38,453 nucleotides of DNA from IMG/VR virus record IMGVR_UViG_3300029668_000007. One strand, written 5' to 3'. The notes under the pieces are model-generated. The model was not told where the DNA came from and did no database searches. It saw only the letters and a program-made list of their open reading frames with translations. Within the stretch, counting starts at the first letter, position 1, and the number at the start of each line of letters is the position of its first letter. Source of the stretch: a virus. Of the stretch, positions 4,925 to 38,453 are shown in pieces. The position numbers were made by a program, and so were the translations under genes.

Positions 4925-6485
4925 ACGCCGCCAGTTGAAATATCGCGCATCCATGATATAATAGGAAAGTCATGCAAGACTCCGTTGCTCTGGTGCAAAG
5001 GTTCGGATTATGCCGGGCTTGGTGTACCACATCCACCAAACCCGAACCAGAAATCTCCTCCCCACGGCCCGCCAGATTGTAGGCCACGAGGACAGAGACC
5101 TTCTGGTTCGGGCTTTGTTGTACCACGATCTTATTCACCAGCATATCGATCACATTTCGCATATAATCCTCATCCTCCAGACATCCATCCGCAAAACAGG
5201 ATAGCCACCGCAGGATATCCACCTCTGTCAGCTCGGGCGCGCCGCGCTGCTCATCGGCCAGCTCGGCGGCGATGCTGGCTTTGCGCCCCTCCAGCTCGTT
5301 GATGCGACCCACCAGCGTGGCGGAGGTCGCGCCCTGCTCCACCATGCGCAGTAGGTTGTCCAGCGACCGCGTCACCTCGTCCAGCTGGCGGCGGAGGGAC
5401 ACGGCGGCGCTGTCGTCCTCGGCCTGACGCTGATATTCAGCTGCGGCGGCGTGGGCCAGTGCCTTGATGTTGTCCGGGCTGAGGAGCGTCCGGGCGTGCT
5501 CCACCACCAGCCGCTCCAAGTCGTCCTTGCGGAGGGTGGGCATCTTGCACCCGAGGCGGCGCTTGCGCCCGCTGCACGCGTAGTAGTAGTACCGCGTCCC
5601 GGAGTGATTGTGGCCGCTCTCCCCCGCCATGGGCTTGCCGCACGCGCCACAGTAGAGCTTCGTGCTCAGGAGGTAGTTGATCGTGGCCTTGGTGCGCCCG
5701 GGGGCCGTCGTGTTTTTTCGGAGCCGCTCCTGTACCCGCCGGAAGGTGCCGGGGTCGACGATGGGCGGGACTTGCCCCACCAGCTCCACCTCGCCATTAT
5801 AATGATAGGTGCCGATGTACTTCCTGTTGGACAGCAACGCGTTAAAGGAGGAGCGGTTGAACGCCTTCCCGGCCCGGGTGCGGTAGCCCTGCGCGTTCAG
5901 CTCGTCCGCGATCCGGGCGAGGCTCATGCCCTCGGCGTAGCGCTCAAAGGCCAGCCGGACGGCGGGCGCGGTGGCCGGGTCGATCTGTAGCCGCTTATCC
6001 ACGGACACATAGCCAAGCGGGATGGTGCCGCCGGTGGACAGGGCCTTGGTGGCGTTCTCGTGCATCCCGCGCGTCACGTCCTGCGCAAGCGATTTGCTAT
6101 AGAACTCGTCCAAACTCTCAAAAATGCCCTCGATCAGCGCGCCCTCCGGGTTGGCGCTGATGGGCTCGCACGCGCTGACCACCTTCACGCCATTCTGCCG
6201 GAGCCGGGCCTTGTAGACGGCGCTGTCGTACCGATTCCGGGCGAAGCGGCTGAACTTGTAGACGATGACCACCTCAAAGCCCCGGCGGCTGCTGTCGCGG
6301 ATCATCCGCTGGAAATCCTCCCGGCGCTCCACGTCCCGGCTGGCGGACAGGGCCCGGTCGGTGTACGTATCCACGACCTCGTAGCCCTCCCGGGCCGCGA
6401 ATTCCTGACAGACCCGGAGCTGCCCCTCGATACTGATCTCCTGCTGCTTCTCGCTGGAGTAGCGGGCGTAGATAACAGCTTTCAT
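4923..6485 (-). CDS. int: Large serine recombinase (integrase), 520 aa
   Basis: It has the N-terminal resolvase motif VIYARYSSEKQ, a recombinase domain, the Cys cluster CGACG...YYACSGRKRRLGC, and a coiled-coil region. Size is typical of large serine integrases. Confidence 0.9.
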   Translation of the reverse strand: MKAVIYARYSSEKQQEISIEGQLRVCQEFAAREGYEVVDTYTDRALSASRDVERREDFQRMIRDSSRRGFEVVIVYKFSRFARNRYDSAVYKARLRQNGVKVVSACEPISANPEGALIEGIFESLDEFYSKSLAQDVTRGMHENATKALSTGGTIPLGYVSVDKRLQIDPATAPAVRLAFERYAEGMSLARIADELNAQGYRTRAGKAFNRSSFNALLSNRKYIGTYHYNGEVELVGQVPPIVDPGTFRRVQERLRKNTTAPGRTKATINYLLSTKLYCGACGKPMAGESGHNHSGTRYYYYACSGRKRRLGCKMPTLRKDDLERLVVEHARTLLSPDNIKALAHAAAAEYQRQAEDDSAAVSLRRQLDEVTRSLDNLLRMVEQGATSATLVGRINELEGRKASIAAELADEQRGAPELTEVDILRWLSCFADGCLEDEDYMRNVIDMLVNKIVVQQSPNQKVSVLVAYNLAGRGEEISGSGLVDVVHQARHNPNLCTRATESCMTFLLYHGCAIFQLAA

Positions 6486-6489
6486 ACGC

Positions 6490-7050
6490 TCACCCTCTGA
6501 CCGGCGAGCCGATCGCCGCGTGGCCGTAGCGGATCAATCCACGATCCCCGCCGGTCACGTCCCAAGCAAACCATAGACAGATGACGACCAAGATCACAAG
6601 CAAGGCCAGCGCCACCACGCGCCAGACGCGCATTTGCTTTACTTCGGCGCGGAGGTGCTGCTCCCGCGCCTCGATCTCCGCGGCGTGGGCCTCTTTCAGG
6701 GTTTCCAGCGTGACGGCGGCGTTCCGTTCCATTACTTCCATTTCACGCCGGTGGGCGGCCTTCATGTCGGGGACGTACTCGCTGCCATAGCTGGGCTCGG
6801 GCTGGGGATCCTCCACTTCCTCCGGCGGAGGATCCAGTGGAATGCCCAGCGCCGAACAGATCGAGAAGACCCGGTCAAAGGCGGGAACCGTCGAAGTATT
6901 CAGGAAGTTGTCGATGGTGCCTTTCGAGTTTATGGTCAGATCAGCCAGTTTTTGGGAGGATATGCCCTGCCGGGCCATTTCCGCCCTGACATGCTCCCGG
7001 AGCGCGTCCATATCATACGGCTGCATAGGATCCTGTTCGATTTTGTCCAT
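6490..7050 (-). CDS. XRE-type HTH protein with a coiled coil and C-terminal TM anchor (186 aa)
   Basis: The HTH reads ISSQKLADLTINSKGTIDNFLN and the C-terminal hydrophobic segment is VVALALLVILVVICLWFAW. The stop lies 4 nt before the int start, so the two form an operon. Confidence 0.75.
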   Translation of the reverse strand: MDKIEQDPMQPYDMDALREHVRAEMARQGISSQKLADLTINSKGTIDNFLNTSTVPAFDRVFSICSALGIPLDPPPEEVEDPQPEPSYGSEYVPDMKAAHRREMEVMERNAAVTLETLKEAHAAEIEAREQHLRAEVKQMRVWRVVALALLVILVVICLWFAWDVTGGDRGLIRYGHAAIGSPVRG

Positions 7051-7227
7051 GTTTCTGTCCTCTTTCCCCTAGAAAAATTTGTCGAACGCTGGCGACCGCC
7101 AGAAAGATGTGATTGCGTCCGGGCATAACGACGTGATACACCAGTATCAGCAACGGCCAGCGCTTGCACTGGCTCCATTATAGGACGGCTCGCCCGAAAA
7201 GACAAGAGGAAAGGACGGAGGAAACAC

Positions 7228-7344
7228 ATGACAAATTATCAGGAAGAGATCCTGCGGATGGTGAAGGAGATCCGCACGCCGGAGATCCTGCGGAAGATCT
7301 ACCGCGTCGTGCGGATGATGTACCGGGCGGAGGTGGGCCGATGA
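7228..7344 (+). CDS. Micro-ORF (38 aa)
   Basis: It is too short for the ORF track. ATG 7228 lies about 7 nt after GGAGG. The product is MTNYQEEILRMVKEIRTPEILRKIYRVVRMMYRAEVGR and the stop overlaps the next start (ATGA). Confidence 0.45.
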   Translation: MTNYQEEILRMVKEIRTPEILRKIYRVVRMMYRAEVGR

Positions 7345-7478
7345 GCGCCGACGACCGCGCCCGCGTGCTGGCGCTGCTGGAAAGTTTGTGCCAATTAGAC
7401 CTGTACAAGGTGGGAATTTATGCCGAGACCCTGCTGGAACTGCGCGGGGGGATTGAAAAAGCCACAGAGCCGCGTTAA
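7341..7478 (+). CDS. Micro-ORF (45 aa)
   Basis: It starts with MSADDRARVLALLESLCQLDLYKVGIYAETLLELRGG and is ATGA-coupled to the 38-aa ORF. Confidence 0.45.
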   Translation: MSADDRARVLALLESLCQLDLYKVGIYAETLLELRGGIEKATEPR

Positions 7479-7511
7479 AATGAGAAAAAGAACCATAGGG
7501 AGGACGCGTCT

Positions 7512-8162
7512 ATGCCACTGATCGGGTACAGGGACAACTGTCTTTACTGCGAAATGCACGTTGCGGGAGTGACGCACAAAAATGGCCGTCGGTCACGTCA
7601 AACCATCCTGCGGAGGATCTACTGGGAGGACGAGCCATACGACAGCTTTAGCGCCGAGCGGGACGTGGGCCCGAAACTGACGGAGTTTGAGGGTCAACCG
7701 GCGGTCGAGATCTGGGTGCGCGGCGGCGAGGAGCCGGAAATGGTCGGCTATGTGCCGAAAACGGAGCTGCCCTTTGTCCTGTCCCACTGGGACAGATACG
7801 CCGGGGTCAGCTGCTTTGAGGTATCCGGCGGAGGGACGGACGCGGACGGCGAAAGGCTAAACTTCGGCGCGCGCCTCGTGATGCGCTTCATGGCGACCGA
7901 CGAGGAGAAAAAGAAATACGACGAGAAACACAAAGAGGATCTGGAAAAAGTCAAAAGACAAGAGTTCGTCGACCGGGAAAGAGAGGCCAGAGCCGCGCGC
8001 GCCCGCGCCGCGATCCAAGACCGGGCGGAAGCCGAAAAACGCGCCGAAGCGGCGCGAAAACAGGCGGAAGCCGAGAAAAAAGAAAAACAGAAAAAGGATA
8101 AGATCATCGCGGCTGGAATCATCGTGGCGCTCATGATCCTGCTGAAACTGCTGTTAAAGTAA
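7512..8162 (+). CDS. HIRAN-domain protein with K/E/A-rich coiled coil and C-terminal TM anchor (216 aa)
   Basis: GGGAGG lies upstream. The HIRAN-like pattern is HVAGVTHKNGRRSRQTIL ... VGYVPKTELPFV ... SGGG. The coiled coil reads REREARAARARAAIQDRAEAEKRAEAARKQAEAEKKEKQKK and the TM segment is IIAAGIIVALMILLKLLL. Confidence 0.7.
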   Translation: MPLIGYRDNCLYCEMHVAGVTHKNGRRSRQTILRRIYWEDEPYDSFSAERDVGPKLTEFEGQPAVEIWVRGGEEPEMVGYVPKTELPFVLSHWDRYAGVSCFEVSGGGTDADGERLNFGARLVMRFMATDEEKKKYDEKHKEDLEKVKRQEFVDREREARAARARAAIQDRAEAEKRAEAARKQAEAEKKEKQKKDKIIAAGIIVALMILLKLLLK

Positions 8163-8174
8163 CCACCAAACAGG

Positions 8175-8212
8175 GAAGACCCCCGGACACTACGTCCGGG
8201 GGTCTTCTTTTT
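8175..8212. terminator. Bidirectional terminator between the HIRAN gene and the CI-like repressor
   Basis: A 14-bp perfect stem (GAAGACCCCCGGAC / GTCCGGGGGTCTTC) is followed by TTTTT on the + strand. The last repressor codons lie inside the stem. Confidence 0.75.
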
Positions 8213-8558
8213 GCATTTGGCTGTCCAAGTATGCCAGGAATGCTTCCGCCAAGTCCGGCGGCATGTTGACCACGAACCTGACCAGCCGCTTCTTGGCCTC
8301 GCTCTGGCCCTCCATGGTGCGGGTGATGGACTGGATGTCGCTGCTCACCTGCGGGTCGATCATCTCCCCCTCGCCGGTCTCCAGCCACCGGCGGGAGATA
8401 CCGAACTCGGAACAGATGAGTTTCTTTGTCGCTTCGGTCGGTTCCCGCTTTCCGCTCAGCCACATACTGACGGCGGATTGTTGGATTCCGACGCGGTCTG
8501 CGAGCGCCGCCTGTGTGATTCCGGCCATCTGGATAATCGCTTTGATCCGATCTTTCAA
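8190..8558 (-). CDS. CI-like XRE-family repressor (122 aa)
   Basis: TTG start 8558 lies 8 nt after AGGAGG. The HTH reads ITQAALADRVGIQQSAVSMWLSGKR. The gene is divergent from the rightward early operon, with operators between them. Confidence 0.8.
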   Translation of the reverse strand: MKDRIKAIIQMAGITQAALADRVGIQQSAVSMWLSGKREPTEATKKLICSEFGISRRWLETGEGEMIDPQVSSDIQSITRTMEGQSEAKKRLVRFVVNMPPDLAEAFLAYLDSQMQKEDPRT

Positions 8559-8582
8559 AGGCTTCCCCTCCTTTCAGATAAT

Positions 8583-8611
8583 ATTATATCACAAAATTAT
8601 ATTTTTGTGAA
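8583..8611 (-). promoter_or_regulatory. Leftward repressor-maintenance-type promoter: TTCACA (8611-8606), 17 nt, TATAAT (8588-8583)
   Basis: Read directly on the minus strand. The spacer is filled by the 22-bp palindrome at 8589-8610. Confidence 0.65.
8589..8610. promoter_or_regulatory. Operator: perfect palindrome TCACAAAA-TTATAT-TTTTGTGA
   Basis: The 8-nt arms are exact reverse complements and the site overlaps the leftward promoter. Confidence 0.7.
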
Positions 8612-8619
8612 GTTTTCTC

Positions 8620-8648
8620 TTGACAAATATATTTATGTGAACTATAAT
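8620..8648 (+). promoter_or_regulatory. Rightward early promoter: TTGACA (8620-8625), 17 nt, TATAAT (8643-8648)
   Basis: Both hexamers are consensus with 17-nt spacing, about 30 nt upstream of the RBS of ORF 8680. Confidence 0.8.
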
Positions 8649-8655
8649 TATCACA
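8636..8655. promoter_or_regulatory. Operator: TGTGA-N10-TCACA overlapping the -10 of the rightward promoter
   Basis: It shares the TGTGA/TCACA half-sites of the 8589-8610 palindrome, in the opposite order. Confidence 0.55.
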
Positions 8656-8679
8656 GTAAGATAAAAGGAGGCGGACAGA

Positions 8680-8838
8680 ATGAGTAAAGACAGTATCGCC
8701 AGCGTCATCATGGCCAAGGCGGCGGAGATGACCGACCGGGAAGCGGAGCTGGCCATGGCGGTAGCCGCCGCCATGCAGAGCGGCTACGAGCTGGGCCGAC
8801 TGAGCGCCCAGAAGGACGATAACAAGGCCAGCGCGTGA
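8680..8838 (+). CDS. Small early protein (52 aa), first gene after the rightward promoter
   Basis: It is too short for the ORF track. AAGGAGG lies 7 nt upstream. The product begins MSKDSIASVIMAKAAEMTDREAELAMAVAAAMQSGYELGRLSAQKDDNKASA. Confidence 0.55.
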   Translation: MSKDSIASVIMAKAAEMTDREAELAMAVAAAMQSGYELGRLSAQKDDNKASA

Positions 8839-8863
8839 CGCTGGCGGAGAGAGGGAATAGGAC

Positions 8864-9055
8864 ATGGGAAAAACACGCTATGAGTCCGTAGCCCGGAAGA
8901 TCGTGGATCTGGTGGAAGGAATGACCACCGAGGAATGGCTGAAAATCGCAGCCCTCATCGACGGCTGTATCAAAACACAGATCGCAGAAATGACCATCCA
9001 GAAGCCGGAAAATCTGGAATACCTGCTGGAACAGGCCATGATATCGGACGATTGA
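8864..9055 (+). CDS. Hypothetical early protein (63 aa)
   Basis: ATG is preceded by GAGGGAAUAGGAC. Composition is coding-like. Confidence 0.6.
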   Translation: MGKTRYESVARKIVDLVEGMTTEEWLKIAALIDGCIKTQIAEMTIQKPENLEYLLEQAMISDD

Positions 9056-12480: not shown

Positions 12481-13497
12481 ATGAACCCATACAGAATCAC
12501 CTCTGCCGCCCTTGTGCTGGCGCTGGCCGCTATCGCCCTGACCGTGTGCGCGGGGCTGGCCGCCGGGCGGAACATGTGGCCGTGGATCGTCGGCTACTGG
12601 GCGGTGCTGACGGCAAAAAATGTTGTGGACTGGATAGGAGGAAAAAAGAATGACCATCAAAGGGCTGCAAAAGCTGATCGGCAAGGATGCCGACAACCTG
12701 ACGCTCATCAACTGCTACGGAGCTGGGGGCATGATCGTCCGCCAGCACCTGAGCGTGTGGGGGCGGGCGATCTACCCCATGGACGGGCTGCCCGTCATGG
12801 ACGAGGAGACGCTGCTGGCGGTGCTGGACGTGCCCCGGGAAAGGTGGAAAAACTGCCACGTGCTGACGGCGGACGCGGACAGCACCCTTCTGACGGCGAT
12901 GATGGAGGACAATCTGGACAGCGACCGCCCGCTGGAGGAGATGGGTATTCAGCTCATCACCGGCGGCGGGGAGTACAAGTTCCTGCTCGACTCGCTGCGG
13001 GGGGAATGCGTTGCCATCCGCCCGGAGTACCTCAAGCCCATCGGCCTGACCAGCGAGCACACGTACTGGCTGCGGGAGACCGGCTGGGACGACAAGACCG
13101 GCGAGGCCAAGCACGTGATCGTTGTCAAGCTAGGGATGCAGAACGTGGCCGCCATCGCCCAGAGCATCGACTGGGGAAGCGACGAGAAGACCGTGGCCCA
13201 GCTGGGCCGGATCTGCGACAAGGCCCGCGCCATCCAGCGGGAGCGGGCGCTGTATGCCGGGGAGGAAAAAGAGGAATGACCATCACCGAGGCCACCCGCC
13301 GAGCCATGGCGGAGGGGAAGAATATCGCCCGGCGCTGGTACGACCGGCGGATCATCATCAAGCCGGAGACCTCGCCGGACTGCTGCCTGATCTGGGTGGA
13401 GGGAAGCAAGCGACCGCCAGCCGTGCGGTGGAACCCGGACGCGGACGACCTGATCTCCGACGCGTGGGAGGTCACGGGTGACTGGTATGAACCGTGA
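12481..13497 (+). CDS. Start of a small 2-TM membrane protein; 3' end unresolved (no in-frame stop before 13497)
   Basis: AAGGAG lies 7 nt upstream. The first ~55 aa (MNPYRITSAALVLALAAIALTVCAGLAAGRNMWPWIVGYWAVLTAK) look genuine. Beyond about 12650 the frame overlaps two better-supported genes and translates to R/G/A-rich junk. Confidence 0.3.
   Translation: MNPYRITSAALVLALAAIALTVCAGLAAGRNMWPWIVGYWAVLTAKNVVDWIGGKKNDHQRAAKADRQGCRQPDAHQLLRSWGHDRPPAPERVGAGDLPHGRAARHGRGDAAGGAGRAPGKVEKLPRADGGRGQHPSDGDDGGQSGQRPPAGGDGYSAHHRRRGVQVPARLAAGGMRCHPPGVPQAHRPDQRAHVLAAGDRLGRQDRRGQARDRCQARDAERGRHRPEHRLGKRREDRGPAGPDLRQGPRHPAGAGAVCRGGKRGMTITEATRRAMAEGKNIARRWYDRRIIIKPETSPDCCLIWVEGSKRPPAVRWNPDADDLISDAWEVTGDWYEP
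12650..13279 (+). CDS. Hypothetical protein (209 aa)
   Basis: GGAGG lies 8 nt upstream and there is a stop in this frame at 12635. Composition is balanced and coding-like. Confidence 0.7.
   Translation: MTIKGLQKLIGKDADNLTLINCYGAGGMIVRQHLSVWGRAIYPMDGLPVMDEETLLAVLDVPRERWKNCHVLTADADSTLLTAMMEDNLDSDRPLEEMGIQLITGGGEYKFLLDSLRGECVAIRPEYLKPIGLTSEHTYWLRETGWDDKTGEAKHVIVVKLGMQNVAAIAQSIDWGSDEKTVAQLGRICDKARAIQRERALYAGEEKEE
13276..13497 (+). CDS. DUF2829 / Tad2-like small protein (73 aa)
   Basis: The N-terminal ITEATRRAMAEGKNIARRWY and C-terminal RWNPDADDLISDAWEV match the recalled DUF2829 pattern (eAl.al.eGkk.aRkgW ... W.p...Dl.aeDWev). The start is ATGA-coupled. Confidence 0.6.
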   Translation: MTITEATRRAMAEGKNIARRWYDRRIIIKPETSPDCCLIWVEGSKRPPAVRWNPDADDLISDAWEVTGDWYEP

Positions 13498-38261: not shown

Positions 38262-38400
38262 CGTTGTATCTCCTATCGCCCGGCGGCTTGTTCCGCCCGC
38301 GGCTCCTTATTGATTACGATATTATTATATATCAAAAATGATAAATAGTCAAGGAGAAAATCGAAATTTCTTAAACTTTTTTTGAATCGAGGAGCCGGTT
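38262..38400 (-). repeat. Promoter-operator-leader cassette, copy 3 (approximate outer limits; runs into the terminal overlap)
   Basis: It aligns with copies 1 and 2. The promoter and operator are near-identical and the leader is diverged, but the GC stem is retained. Confidence 0.85.
38324..38352 (-). promoter_or_regulatory. Promoter P3: TTGACT (38352-38347), 17 nt, TATAAT (38329-38324); palindrome TATCA-AAAA-TGATA at 38330-38343
   Basis: Read directly. The architecture matches P1 and P2. Confidence 0.8.
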
Positions 38401-38453
38401 GATCTCCGACAGCCGCTCATATAACCTGCGTTTTTCCGCCACCAGCGCCGCCC
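38355..38453. repeat. Terminal exact direct repeat, copy 2 (identical to 1-99)
   Basis: Identity is 99/99. It includes a duplicate of the 3' end of CDS 17-664 (38371-38453), which should not be counted as a separate gene. Confidence 0.95.

Follow-up and report, generated by a model that had tools for sequence, protein, structure and literature searches.

A predicted tail-anchored protein with a divergent HIRAN-like domain in the lysogeny module of a phage of gut Clostridia

Between the integrase gene and the cI-like repressor gene of the viral record IMGVR_UViG_3300029668_000007 lies a short rightward gene, open reading frame 3 (ORF3), which is preceded by two very small ones, ORF1 and ORF2. 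The analysis covers the whole stretch of 38,453 nucleotides, which we call the window. From its sequence, the ORF3 protein is predicted to be held at the inner face of the membrane by a C-terminal tail anchor, and its N-terminal domain is a divergent member of the HIRAN superfamily as judged by remote homology. ORF3 is best explained as an accessory gene that a temperate phage of gut Clostridia carries in its lysogeny module. Relatives of its domain recur beside prophage integrase and repressor genes, and the family they form is widespread in prophages of human-gut Clostridia. For the function, we tentatively infer a role in superinfection exclusion or defence.

The relationship to HIRAN is carried by profile bridging. 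In a search of 5.8 billion sequences the family profile retrieves two proteins that Pfam calls as HIRAN, P0221 and P0222, with E-values of 1.5e-8 and 7.3e-8. P0222 also aligns with the family profile in a direct comparison (hhalign 97.7%, E 1.9e-12), scores 38.5 bits on the Pfam HIRAN model PF08797, above its gathering score of 24.7 bits, and matches the solved HLTF HIRAN chains at 4e-6 through the motif RDPNNxYDKNAI. This chain, leading from the family profile to P0222 and from there to PF08797 and HLTF, establishes that the ORF3 domain is homologous to HIRAN. When 74 family members reduced to the domain are scanned one by one, 20 match PF08797, by far the commonest family among the matches, with a best E of 3.3e-5; the three matches inspected score 12.5-17.7 bits, below the cut-off, and the matches cover profile positions 33-91 or, at most, 33-94. 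The AlphaFold model of the domain, built with the 74-sequence alignment, reaches a predicted local distance difference test score (pLDDT) of 94.5. With this model, a Foldseek search of BFVD returns two family members, followed by a HIRAN-annotated Lactobacillus phage protein (E 5.2e-5, TM-score 0.47) and a helicase (6.7e-4). Single members carry fusions to RNase_T, SNase and BRCT domains, which point to a nucleic-acid context for the family. The original prediction had called the domain HIRAN-like; the call stands as remote homology reached by profile bridging, and it does not stand as a Pfam call on the protein itself, nor do Foldseek and sequence searches of the PDB recover HLTF HIRAN.

The membrane anchor of the ORF3 protein is predicted from hydropathy at residues 195-216, and this segment is conserved in the homologues P0001 and P0003-P0007, while P0002 appears frameshifted. 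We could not detect an N-terminal signal sequence in ORF3. A C-terminal anchor in a protein that lacks a signal peptide places the HIRAN-like domain in the cytoplasm. The tail anchor had been part of the original prediction and is borne out. The K/E/A/R coiled coil that it proposed between domain and anchor has to be given up. Residues 129-196 are 63% charged and only 9% hydrophobic, contain 19 opposite-charge pairs at i/i+4 spacing and show no heptad register with hydrophobic a and d positions, so that no coiled coil can be demonstrated. A charged single helix fits better, and AlphaFold predicts one continuous helix from residue 130 to 215. The spacer is probably a single alpha-helix of the ER/K type; if so, its length would be roughly 10 nm. 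Relatives have linkers rich in P, S and T at the place of the charged helix.

An exhaustive profile search with the N-terminal 130 residues of ORF3 gathers, up to an E of 0.001, 305 representatives clustered at 50% identity, which define a family. The 99%-identity cluster of the window protein itself holds 196 sequences, and a search for related loci with a narrow alignment found near-identical viral contigs only. Transmembrane (TM) segments are predicted in 109 of 150 representatives examined (~73%). Two N-terminal segments, the commonest arrangement, precede a C-terminal domain in 57 of them, and 33 have one such segment. The anchor is C-terminal in 16, and the remaining three show other combinations; a further 14 of the 150 have a zinc-ribbon-like N-terminus and no TM segment. 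Both the arrangement with two N-terminal segments and the tail anchor place the HIRAN-like domain in the cytoplasm. We conclude from these predictions that tethering of a cytoplasm-facing domain to the membrane is likely the hallmark of the family. Searches of 50,697 annotated phage records by megablast and tblastn gave no relative of the unit, of the domain, of a family member or of the family consensus; with a genuine HIRAN lipoprotein as query, unrelated HIRAN genes alone were retrieved.

The genomic placement of the family is constant to a large degree. In phage-size contigs of cluster P0169, a gene for a HIRAN-like protein with two TM segments, a gene for a helix-turn-helix (HTH) protein with a TM segment and a tyrosine integrase gene follow in this order, and the HTH-TM and HIRAN-like proteins share ~30% identity with their counterparts in the window. 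In six further clusters (P0197, P0167, P0175, P0193, P0192 and P0194) the HIRAN-like gene stands alone on the plus strand between the lysis cassette and a gene of 81 amino acids, from which it diverges; an rve-type integrase follows at the prophage end. A Pfam HTH match is on record for the 81-residue gene in three of these six rve-type clusters. An integrase gene or a gene for a cI-like repressor lies within ~3 kb in all seven metagenome contexts chosen for inspection. In assembled genomes of Oscillospiraceae and other Clostridia, an integrase lies within ~3 kb in nine of 11 loci, and a tenth locus has a cI-like gene. The neighbouring integrases are of the serine, tyrosine and rve type. The location of the gene in the gap between integrase and cI was correctly given in the original prediction, and in many prophages its relatives adjoin integrase genes of three classes. 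The recurrence in other such gaps that it proposed to survey is seen for the HIRAN-like membrane gene beside integrases, but not for the upstream micro-ORFs. Membrane tethering together with the constant position beside three unrelated integrase classes is a strong comparative signal that the family serves the lysogen or the lysogeny decision; Pfam, NCBIfam and PADLOC offer no annotation for it.

Two observations on these relatives are added here. P0221 and P0222, proteins of 166 amino acids, carry a signal peptide with a lipobox (…LSAC); from this they would be extracytoplasmic lipoproteins, which is an odd place for a domain that binds DNA ends. In the rve-type prophages (L023, L024, L025, L026, L033 and L034) an RVT_1 reverse transcriptase lies beside the tail-fibre and lysis region, and this region looks like a diversity-generating retroelement.

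In the window, gene calls, Pfam and PHROGs confirm that the rightward genes lie between a leftward operon of HTH-TM gene and integrase gene and a leftward CI-like repressor gene (Table 1). The HTH-TM gene has the same orientation as the integrase gene and ends 4 nt upstream of it. The ATGA-coupled genes of 38 and 45 codons and the gene of 216 codons are confirmed from the sequence as all rightward, each with its GGAGG-type ribosome-binding site 6-8 nt ahead of the ATG. The strong terminator proposed for the end of the unit is found at 8172-8210 (-34.7 kcal/mol, z = -7.3 against shuffled sequences). It has a 17-bp stem with 10 G-C pairs and a T-run, is also called on the minus strand, and is common to the rightward unit and the convergent cI gene. 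ORF1 to ORF3 share a strand and an end, but they are perhaps not a single operon, as a promoter-like site precedes ORF3. With its own promoter-like site, a single gene and a strong terminator, ORF3 has a predicted anatomy like that of a moron. The hexamers of this promoter candidate appear as TTGCCA and TAAGAT in diverged relatives, and an analogous promoter-like site with a terminator-like hairpin is present at the homologue of ORF3 in L033. A leftward promoter-like site on the minus strand (TTGTCT-17-TATAAT, 7205-7177) is in a position to serve the HTH-TM and integrase genes; we found no consensus rightward promoter for ORF1 in 7051-7227.

Table 1. Features of the integrase-repressor region in the window (TM, transmembrane; aa, amino acids)
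Feature	Position	Strand	Basis or remark
Large serine recombinase (integrase), 520 aa	4923-6485	-	Pfam Resolvase, Recombinase, Zn_ribbon_recom, E 1e-27 to 1e-14
HTH(XRE)-helical-TM protein, 186 aa	6490-7050	-	HTH_3 E 4.9e-4; phrog_3 'transcriptional repressor' 2.4e-8; TM at aa 139-168
Divergent intergenic region, 177 bp	7051-7227		Leftward promoter-like site inside
ORF1, 38 aa	7228-7344	+	GGAGG-type ribosome-binding site; coding signature
ORF2, 45 aa	7341-7478	+	ATG overlaps ORF1 stop (ATGA, 7341-7344); coding signature
Sigma-70-like promoter candidate for ORF3 alone	7453-7481	+	TTGAAA-17-TAAAAT, 10/12
ORF3, 216 aa	7512-8162	+	GGAGG-type ribosome-binding site
ORF3 aa 1-128, divergent HIRAN-like beta-rich domain	7512-7895	+	AlphaFold2 model and profile homology
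ORF3 aa 129-196, highly charged E/K/R/A helix	7896-8099	+	Composition and AlphaFold2 model
ORF3 aa 195-216, predicted C-terminal TM tail anchor, then stop codon	8094-8162	+	Hydropathy
Bidirectional intrinsic terminator	8172-8210		Hairpin and T-run; folding energy
cI-like repressor, 122 aa, convergent	8190-8558	-	HTH_3 1.9e-12; Phage_CI_repr 1.6e-4; phrog_4 1.3e-17

The two ends of the window repeat each other exactly over 99 bp in direct orientation (1-99 and 38355-38453), which marks the window as a closed, circular phage contig of ~38.35 kb and not a prophage embedded in host DNA. An integrated copy is present in L027, a 158-kb human-gut metagenome contig, with 100% identity to the window from position 5020 onward and with the 3' end of a tRNA-Lys(CTT) gene as integration site (L027 7614-7689). 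The start of identity at 5020 places the attP crossover inside the 3' end of the integrase gene, at about 5017-5027. The integrase has 520 amino acids in the circular form and 497 in the L027 prophage, where the unit of ORF1 to ORF3 lies ~2.2-3.1 kb from attL. An attP in the 7051-7227 gap, which would split the unit on integration, is ruled out by the junction near 5020.

On the other side of the repressor gene, the cI/cro-like intergenic region 8559-8679 has 30% G+C in a genome of 60% G+C. It contains divergent consensus promoters (TTGACA-17-TATAAT, 12/12, at 8620-8648) and palindromic operator-like sites, TCACA-N12-TGTGA at 8589-8610 with a related arm at 8625-8652. No copy of the 8589-8610 palindrome was found in the intergenic region between the integrase operon and ORF1, so that there is no evidence of cI control over the unit. 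A scan of 6400-8900 against Rfam gave no RNA family, and its sub-threshold matches are mostly the terminator hairpin.

The gap between integrase and repressor in Firmicutes prophages often holds exclusion genes that are expressed in the lysogen, sie2009 and ltp among them, and the HIRAN domain of HLTF binds DNA ends or single-stranded DNA. A function of ORF3 in superinfection exclusion or defence, which we favour with reserve, would join these two properties. The protein would be made in lysogens, its domain would bind DNA, perhaps ends or single strands in the manner of HLTF HIRAN, and it would act on DNA just inside the membrane entry site. Superinfecting phage DNA or other incoming DNA could there be captured or blocked. 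Like the genes of the Sie2009/Ltp type, ORF3 lies between integrase and repressor as what is predicted to be a separate transcription unit, and the TM segment at 195-216, with those in 109 of 150 family representatives, predicts the membrane association of that type. If interception from the cytoplasmic side is true, it would be a mechanistically new form of superinfection exclusion or defence and would give HIRAN domains a bacterial role outside helicase fusions. ORF3 is a short, single-gene candidate that can be tested directly.

Several points weigh against this assignment. The proposed screen with PADLOC-DB 2.0 found no model that matches ORF3, and 74 family members gave marginal matches only, at E 0.002 or weaker. 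The family has no named PHROG; it matches chiefly phrog_37629, and also phrog_13363 and phrog_27141, all without assigned function. PF08797 does not match the ORF3 protein at E up to 1. With the domain model, the best Foldseek match in the PDB has an E of 0.098, and the first 50 matches include no HLTF chain. The transitive alignment puts the Tyr93-Asp94 dyad of HLTF on Glu60-Gly61 of ORF3, so that binding of 3'-OH ends by the ORF3 domain is only putative, and at the position equivalent to HLTF Tyr72, where 66 of 74 relatives have Phe or Tyr, the window protein has His22. Known Sie and Ltp proteins work from outside or in the membrane and are not known to use a cytoplasmic DNA-binding domain. 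Finally, the constant adjacency to the HTH-integrase operon fits a regulatory role equally well. Further searches were negative: the ORF3 protein has no meaningful match in Pfam, NCBIfam, PHROGs or PADLOC, PDB sequence searches with the protein and two profiles gave none either, and the full-length ORF3 model returned noise only in Foldseek against the PDB. No named PHROG, Pfam or NCBIfam match relates ORF3 to the Sie or Ltp families.

Elsewhere in the phage, precomputed Pfam matches on related contigs give a weak Tad2-like (anti-Thoeris) match for a 73-residue early gene at window ~13276-13497 (L027 15936-16157), and an AcrIC5 match in a relative at L004 340-567. From these matches, both are possible counter-defence genes.

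The two micro-ORFs upstream of ORF3 are more than chance reading frames. They are called as genes with unchanged lengths in every related contig, and ORF1, ORF2 and ORF3 stand together in the integrase-repressor gap of every close relative examined. The ORF1 protein is identical in nine of ten related loci, with few DNA changes that are mostly synonymous. Across these ten loci, where independent substitutions are few, especially in ORF1, the ratio of non-synonymous to synonymous polymorphism (pN/pS) of ORF1 is 0.09 in the annotated frame and 1.17 in one alternative frame, the other frame having no synonymous differences; for ORF2 it is 0.44, compared with 1.0 and 1.6 in the other frames. These values argue that both are real small genes under purifying selection. 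An alternative ORF of 104 amino acids at 7164-7478 was rejected: its N-terminal part is low-complexity out-of-frame sequence, and pN/pS favours the 38-residue frame. The residue pattern of ORF1 suggests a peptide of two helices in which EILR occurs twice, and ORF2 looks helical. Pfam, PHROGs and NCBIfam contain no match to either, PADLOC gives chance-level matches for ORF1 only, and searches for remote homologues found only close relatives of ORF2, as clusters of 45-58 amino acids. ORF1 and ORF2 have no detectable similarity to each other.

The conservation of these genes follows that of the HTH-TM gene. Compared at the nucleotide level with the diverged loci L002 and L004, the window has 81-82% identity in the integrase gene, 96-97% in the HTH-TM gene, 95-96% in the intergenic region, 98% in ORF1, 89-92% in ORF2 and 71% in the ORF3 domain, the last from a partial alignment. 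Across relatives, the intergenic region 7051-7227 is 95-97% conserved, and the gradient breaks within the 3' end of ORF2. This gradient assigns the micro-ORFs to a block formed by the HTH-TM gene, the divergent promoter region and ORF1-ORF2. By the same comparison ORF3 is variable cargo downstream of this block, and the micro-ORFs co-vary with the HTH-TM gene and not with the HIRAN-like gene. They are more likely to be small regulators of the HTH-TM switch than obligatory partners of the HIRAN-like protein.

It is conceivable, if somewhat doubtful, that the micro-ORFs are altogether unlinked in function to ORF3 and serve as small regulators of the HTH-TM and integrase genes, for example as a recombination directionality factor (RDF) for the serine integrase or as an anti-repressor. 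Small RDFs are known for some serine integrases, such as Orf7 of TP901-1 and SprB of SPbeta. The break of conservation within ORF2 and the promoter-like site between ORF2 and ORF3 agree with such a separation, as does the finding that micro-ORFs are absent upstream of every more distant HIRAN-like gene examined. However, no terminator lies in the gap of 33 nt between ORF2 and ORF3, our searches found no homology of ORF1 or ORF2 to a known RDF or regulator, and with 38 and 45 amino acids both are shorter than known RDFs. ORF1 and ORF3 are also linked by an in-frame, near-identical repeat of 18 nt (17/18) at 7285-7302 in ORF1 (ILRKIY) and 7605-7622 in ORF3 (ILRRIY), which is found at 7249-7266 as well. 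The ORF3 copy is part of the RQTILRxI helix, a conserved element of the HIRAN-like domain, and ORF1 has a second EILR copy. Judged from the residues, the ILR(K/R)IY repeat may have arisen by partial duplication or may mimic this helix.

It is rather unlikely, in our estimate, that the ORF3 domain is of HIRAN ancestry and no longer binds DNA ends, serving as a protein-binding or other module. Such a loss would agree with the negative Foldseek result against the PDB, with the sub-threshold level of all Pfam matches and their restriction to part of the profile, and with the alignment of the Tyr-Asp dyad to Glu-Gly. The residues Gly19, Arg29, Gln30 and Gly79 are invariant in the family and are not among the HLTF contacts, which we take to be Tyr72, Tyr93 and Asp94 in the 3'-OH pocket. 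On the other hand, positions 59-60 hold a conserved pair, aromatic in 72 of 74 members and then Glu, Asp or Asn in 66 of 74, which is only one residue off the HLTF dyad. Most members also retain an aromatic residue at the position equivalent to Tyr72, and in some the domain is fused to nucleases. A function apart from end binding would have a parallel in HIRAN proteins that have been proposed as HipA antitoxins (PMC11706625).

We regard it as unlikely, yet as a serious rival, that ORF3 senses DNA ends or single-stranded DNA at the membrane and signals to the neighbouring HTH regulator, possibly via ORF1 and ORF2. The DNA would stem from superinfection, competence import or damage, and the output would be control of integrase expression, induction or excision. 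If true, such sensing would bear on how prophages perceive the entry of DNA. The HIRAN-like gene does adjoin the HTH-integrase operon, and usually diverges from it, in every metagenome context examined. Two phages whose integrases belong to different classes both keep an HTH-TM protein and a HIRAN-like TM protein side by side, at ~30% identity between the phages, and conservation is highest in the block of HTH-TM gene, intergenic region and ORF1, with 96-99% where the integrase gene has 81%. An influence of this kind is reported for SzaL, another accessory membrane protein of pneumococcal lysogeny modules, which is implicated in ImmAR-independent activation of the prophage (PMC12637031). Signalling finds no constant partner, however, since in the rve-type prophages micro-ORFs are absent and no TM segment is predicted for the two copies of the adjacent 81-residue gene that were checked. 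In addition, ORF3 has no signalling domain and has its own promoter-like site and terminator.

The HTH-TM protein is itself more conserved across relatives (96-98% at the nucleotide level) than the integrase (81-97%). A homologue occurs in an unrelated phage (L021 5904-6338; 28% identity, E 2e-7), where it precedes a tyrosine integrase and stands beside a HIRAN-like TM gene. Its domains and position would suit a regulator of integration or lysogeny that is tethered to the membrane.

A bolder form, which we consider quite improbable, is a new class of prophage sensors of DNA ends, tethered to the membrane in the cytoplasm, that capture the leading 3' end of entering DNA and then block or signal. 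The domain would hang ~10 nm below the membrane on the rigid charged helix. DNA would enter by phage injection or by import of single-stranded DNA in competence or conjugation. It would be blocked, or the prophage would be told to change its state via the membrane-bound HTH regulator and the two micro-proteins, for instance to escape 'chromosomal curing' by transformation.

A role of ORF3 in phage DNA metabolism, where it would anchor replicating or entering DNA to the membrane in the manner of p16.7 of phi29 or protect the 3' ends that the phage's rolling-circle-type Rep makes, is very doubtful: it would match the anchor, helical spacer and nucleic-acid-binding domain of p16.7, the REP_ORF2-G2P-type initiator encoded by the phage and the fusions to nucleases and BRCT that point to DNA transactions, but ORF3 is outside the early or replication operon, in the lysogeny module, on the opposite strand and isolated by a terminator, and phages that differ in their replication modules place the gene in the same way, so that by gene placement replication is less likely than either exclusion or sensing.

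Superinfection exclusion or defence, the function that we tentatively prefer, finds its closest functional models in Sie2009 of lactococcal phages and Ltp of the Streptococcus thermophilus phage TP-J34. They share with ORF3 the genomic slot, the small size and membrane association of their products, the organisation as independent units and the presumed expression in the lysogen. They have no sequence relationship to ORF3. Ltp is a lipoprotein on the outside of the cell and targets the tape-measure protein, whereas the ORF3 domain is predicted to be cytoplasmic and related to a DNA-binding fold. A TM anchor combined with a cytoplasmic nucleic-acid-binding part, acting on phage DNA at the membrane, is found in lactococcal AbiP and in p16.7 of phi29, the latter with a coiled-coil spacer and encoded by an early lytic gene. 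Their domains are unrelated to that of ORF3 and neither is known to belong to a lysogeny module, AbiP having been described as plasmid-borne.

With the HIRAN domain of HLTF (PF08797; PDB 4S0N, 4XZF, 2MZN) the ORF3 domain shares homology bridged by profiles and the beta-rich core motifs A-[IV]-x-V ... [IV]-G-[YFH]-[IV]. It differs in the 3'-OH pocket motif, where NPYDxN is replaced by E-[YF]-[ED]-G-x-P in the window family, and in the invariant Arg29 and Gln30 and a G-G-G loop, which are features of the window family. HLTF HIRAN is attached to an SNF2 helicase and the ORF3 domain to a membrane anchor.

The original prediction knew of no defence system with the architecture of ORF3. No PADLOC model describes it, but a lysogeny protein that combines a TM segment with HIRAN, ThaL, has already been named (PMC12637031). 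ThaL is annotated in the lysogeny module of a pneumococcal prophage with a C1-type repressor, and its function has not been studied (PMC12637031). ORF3 differs from ThaL in its tail anchor at the end of a long charged helix, in the two micro-ORFs upstream and in belonging to a family too diverged for a Pfam HIRAN call. In tblastn against the phage records the window domain, two family members and the family consensus have no streptococcal match. The likeness to ThaL is one of architecture and location. In both cases, a TM segment and a HIRAN or HIRAN-like domain are combined in one protein of the lysogeny module of a Firmicutes prophage (PMC12637031).

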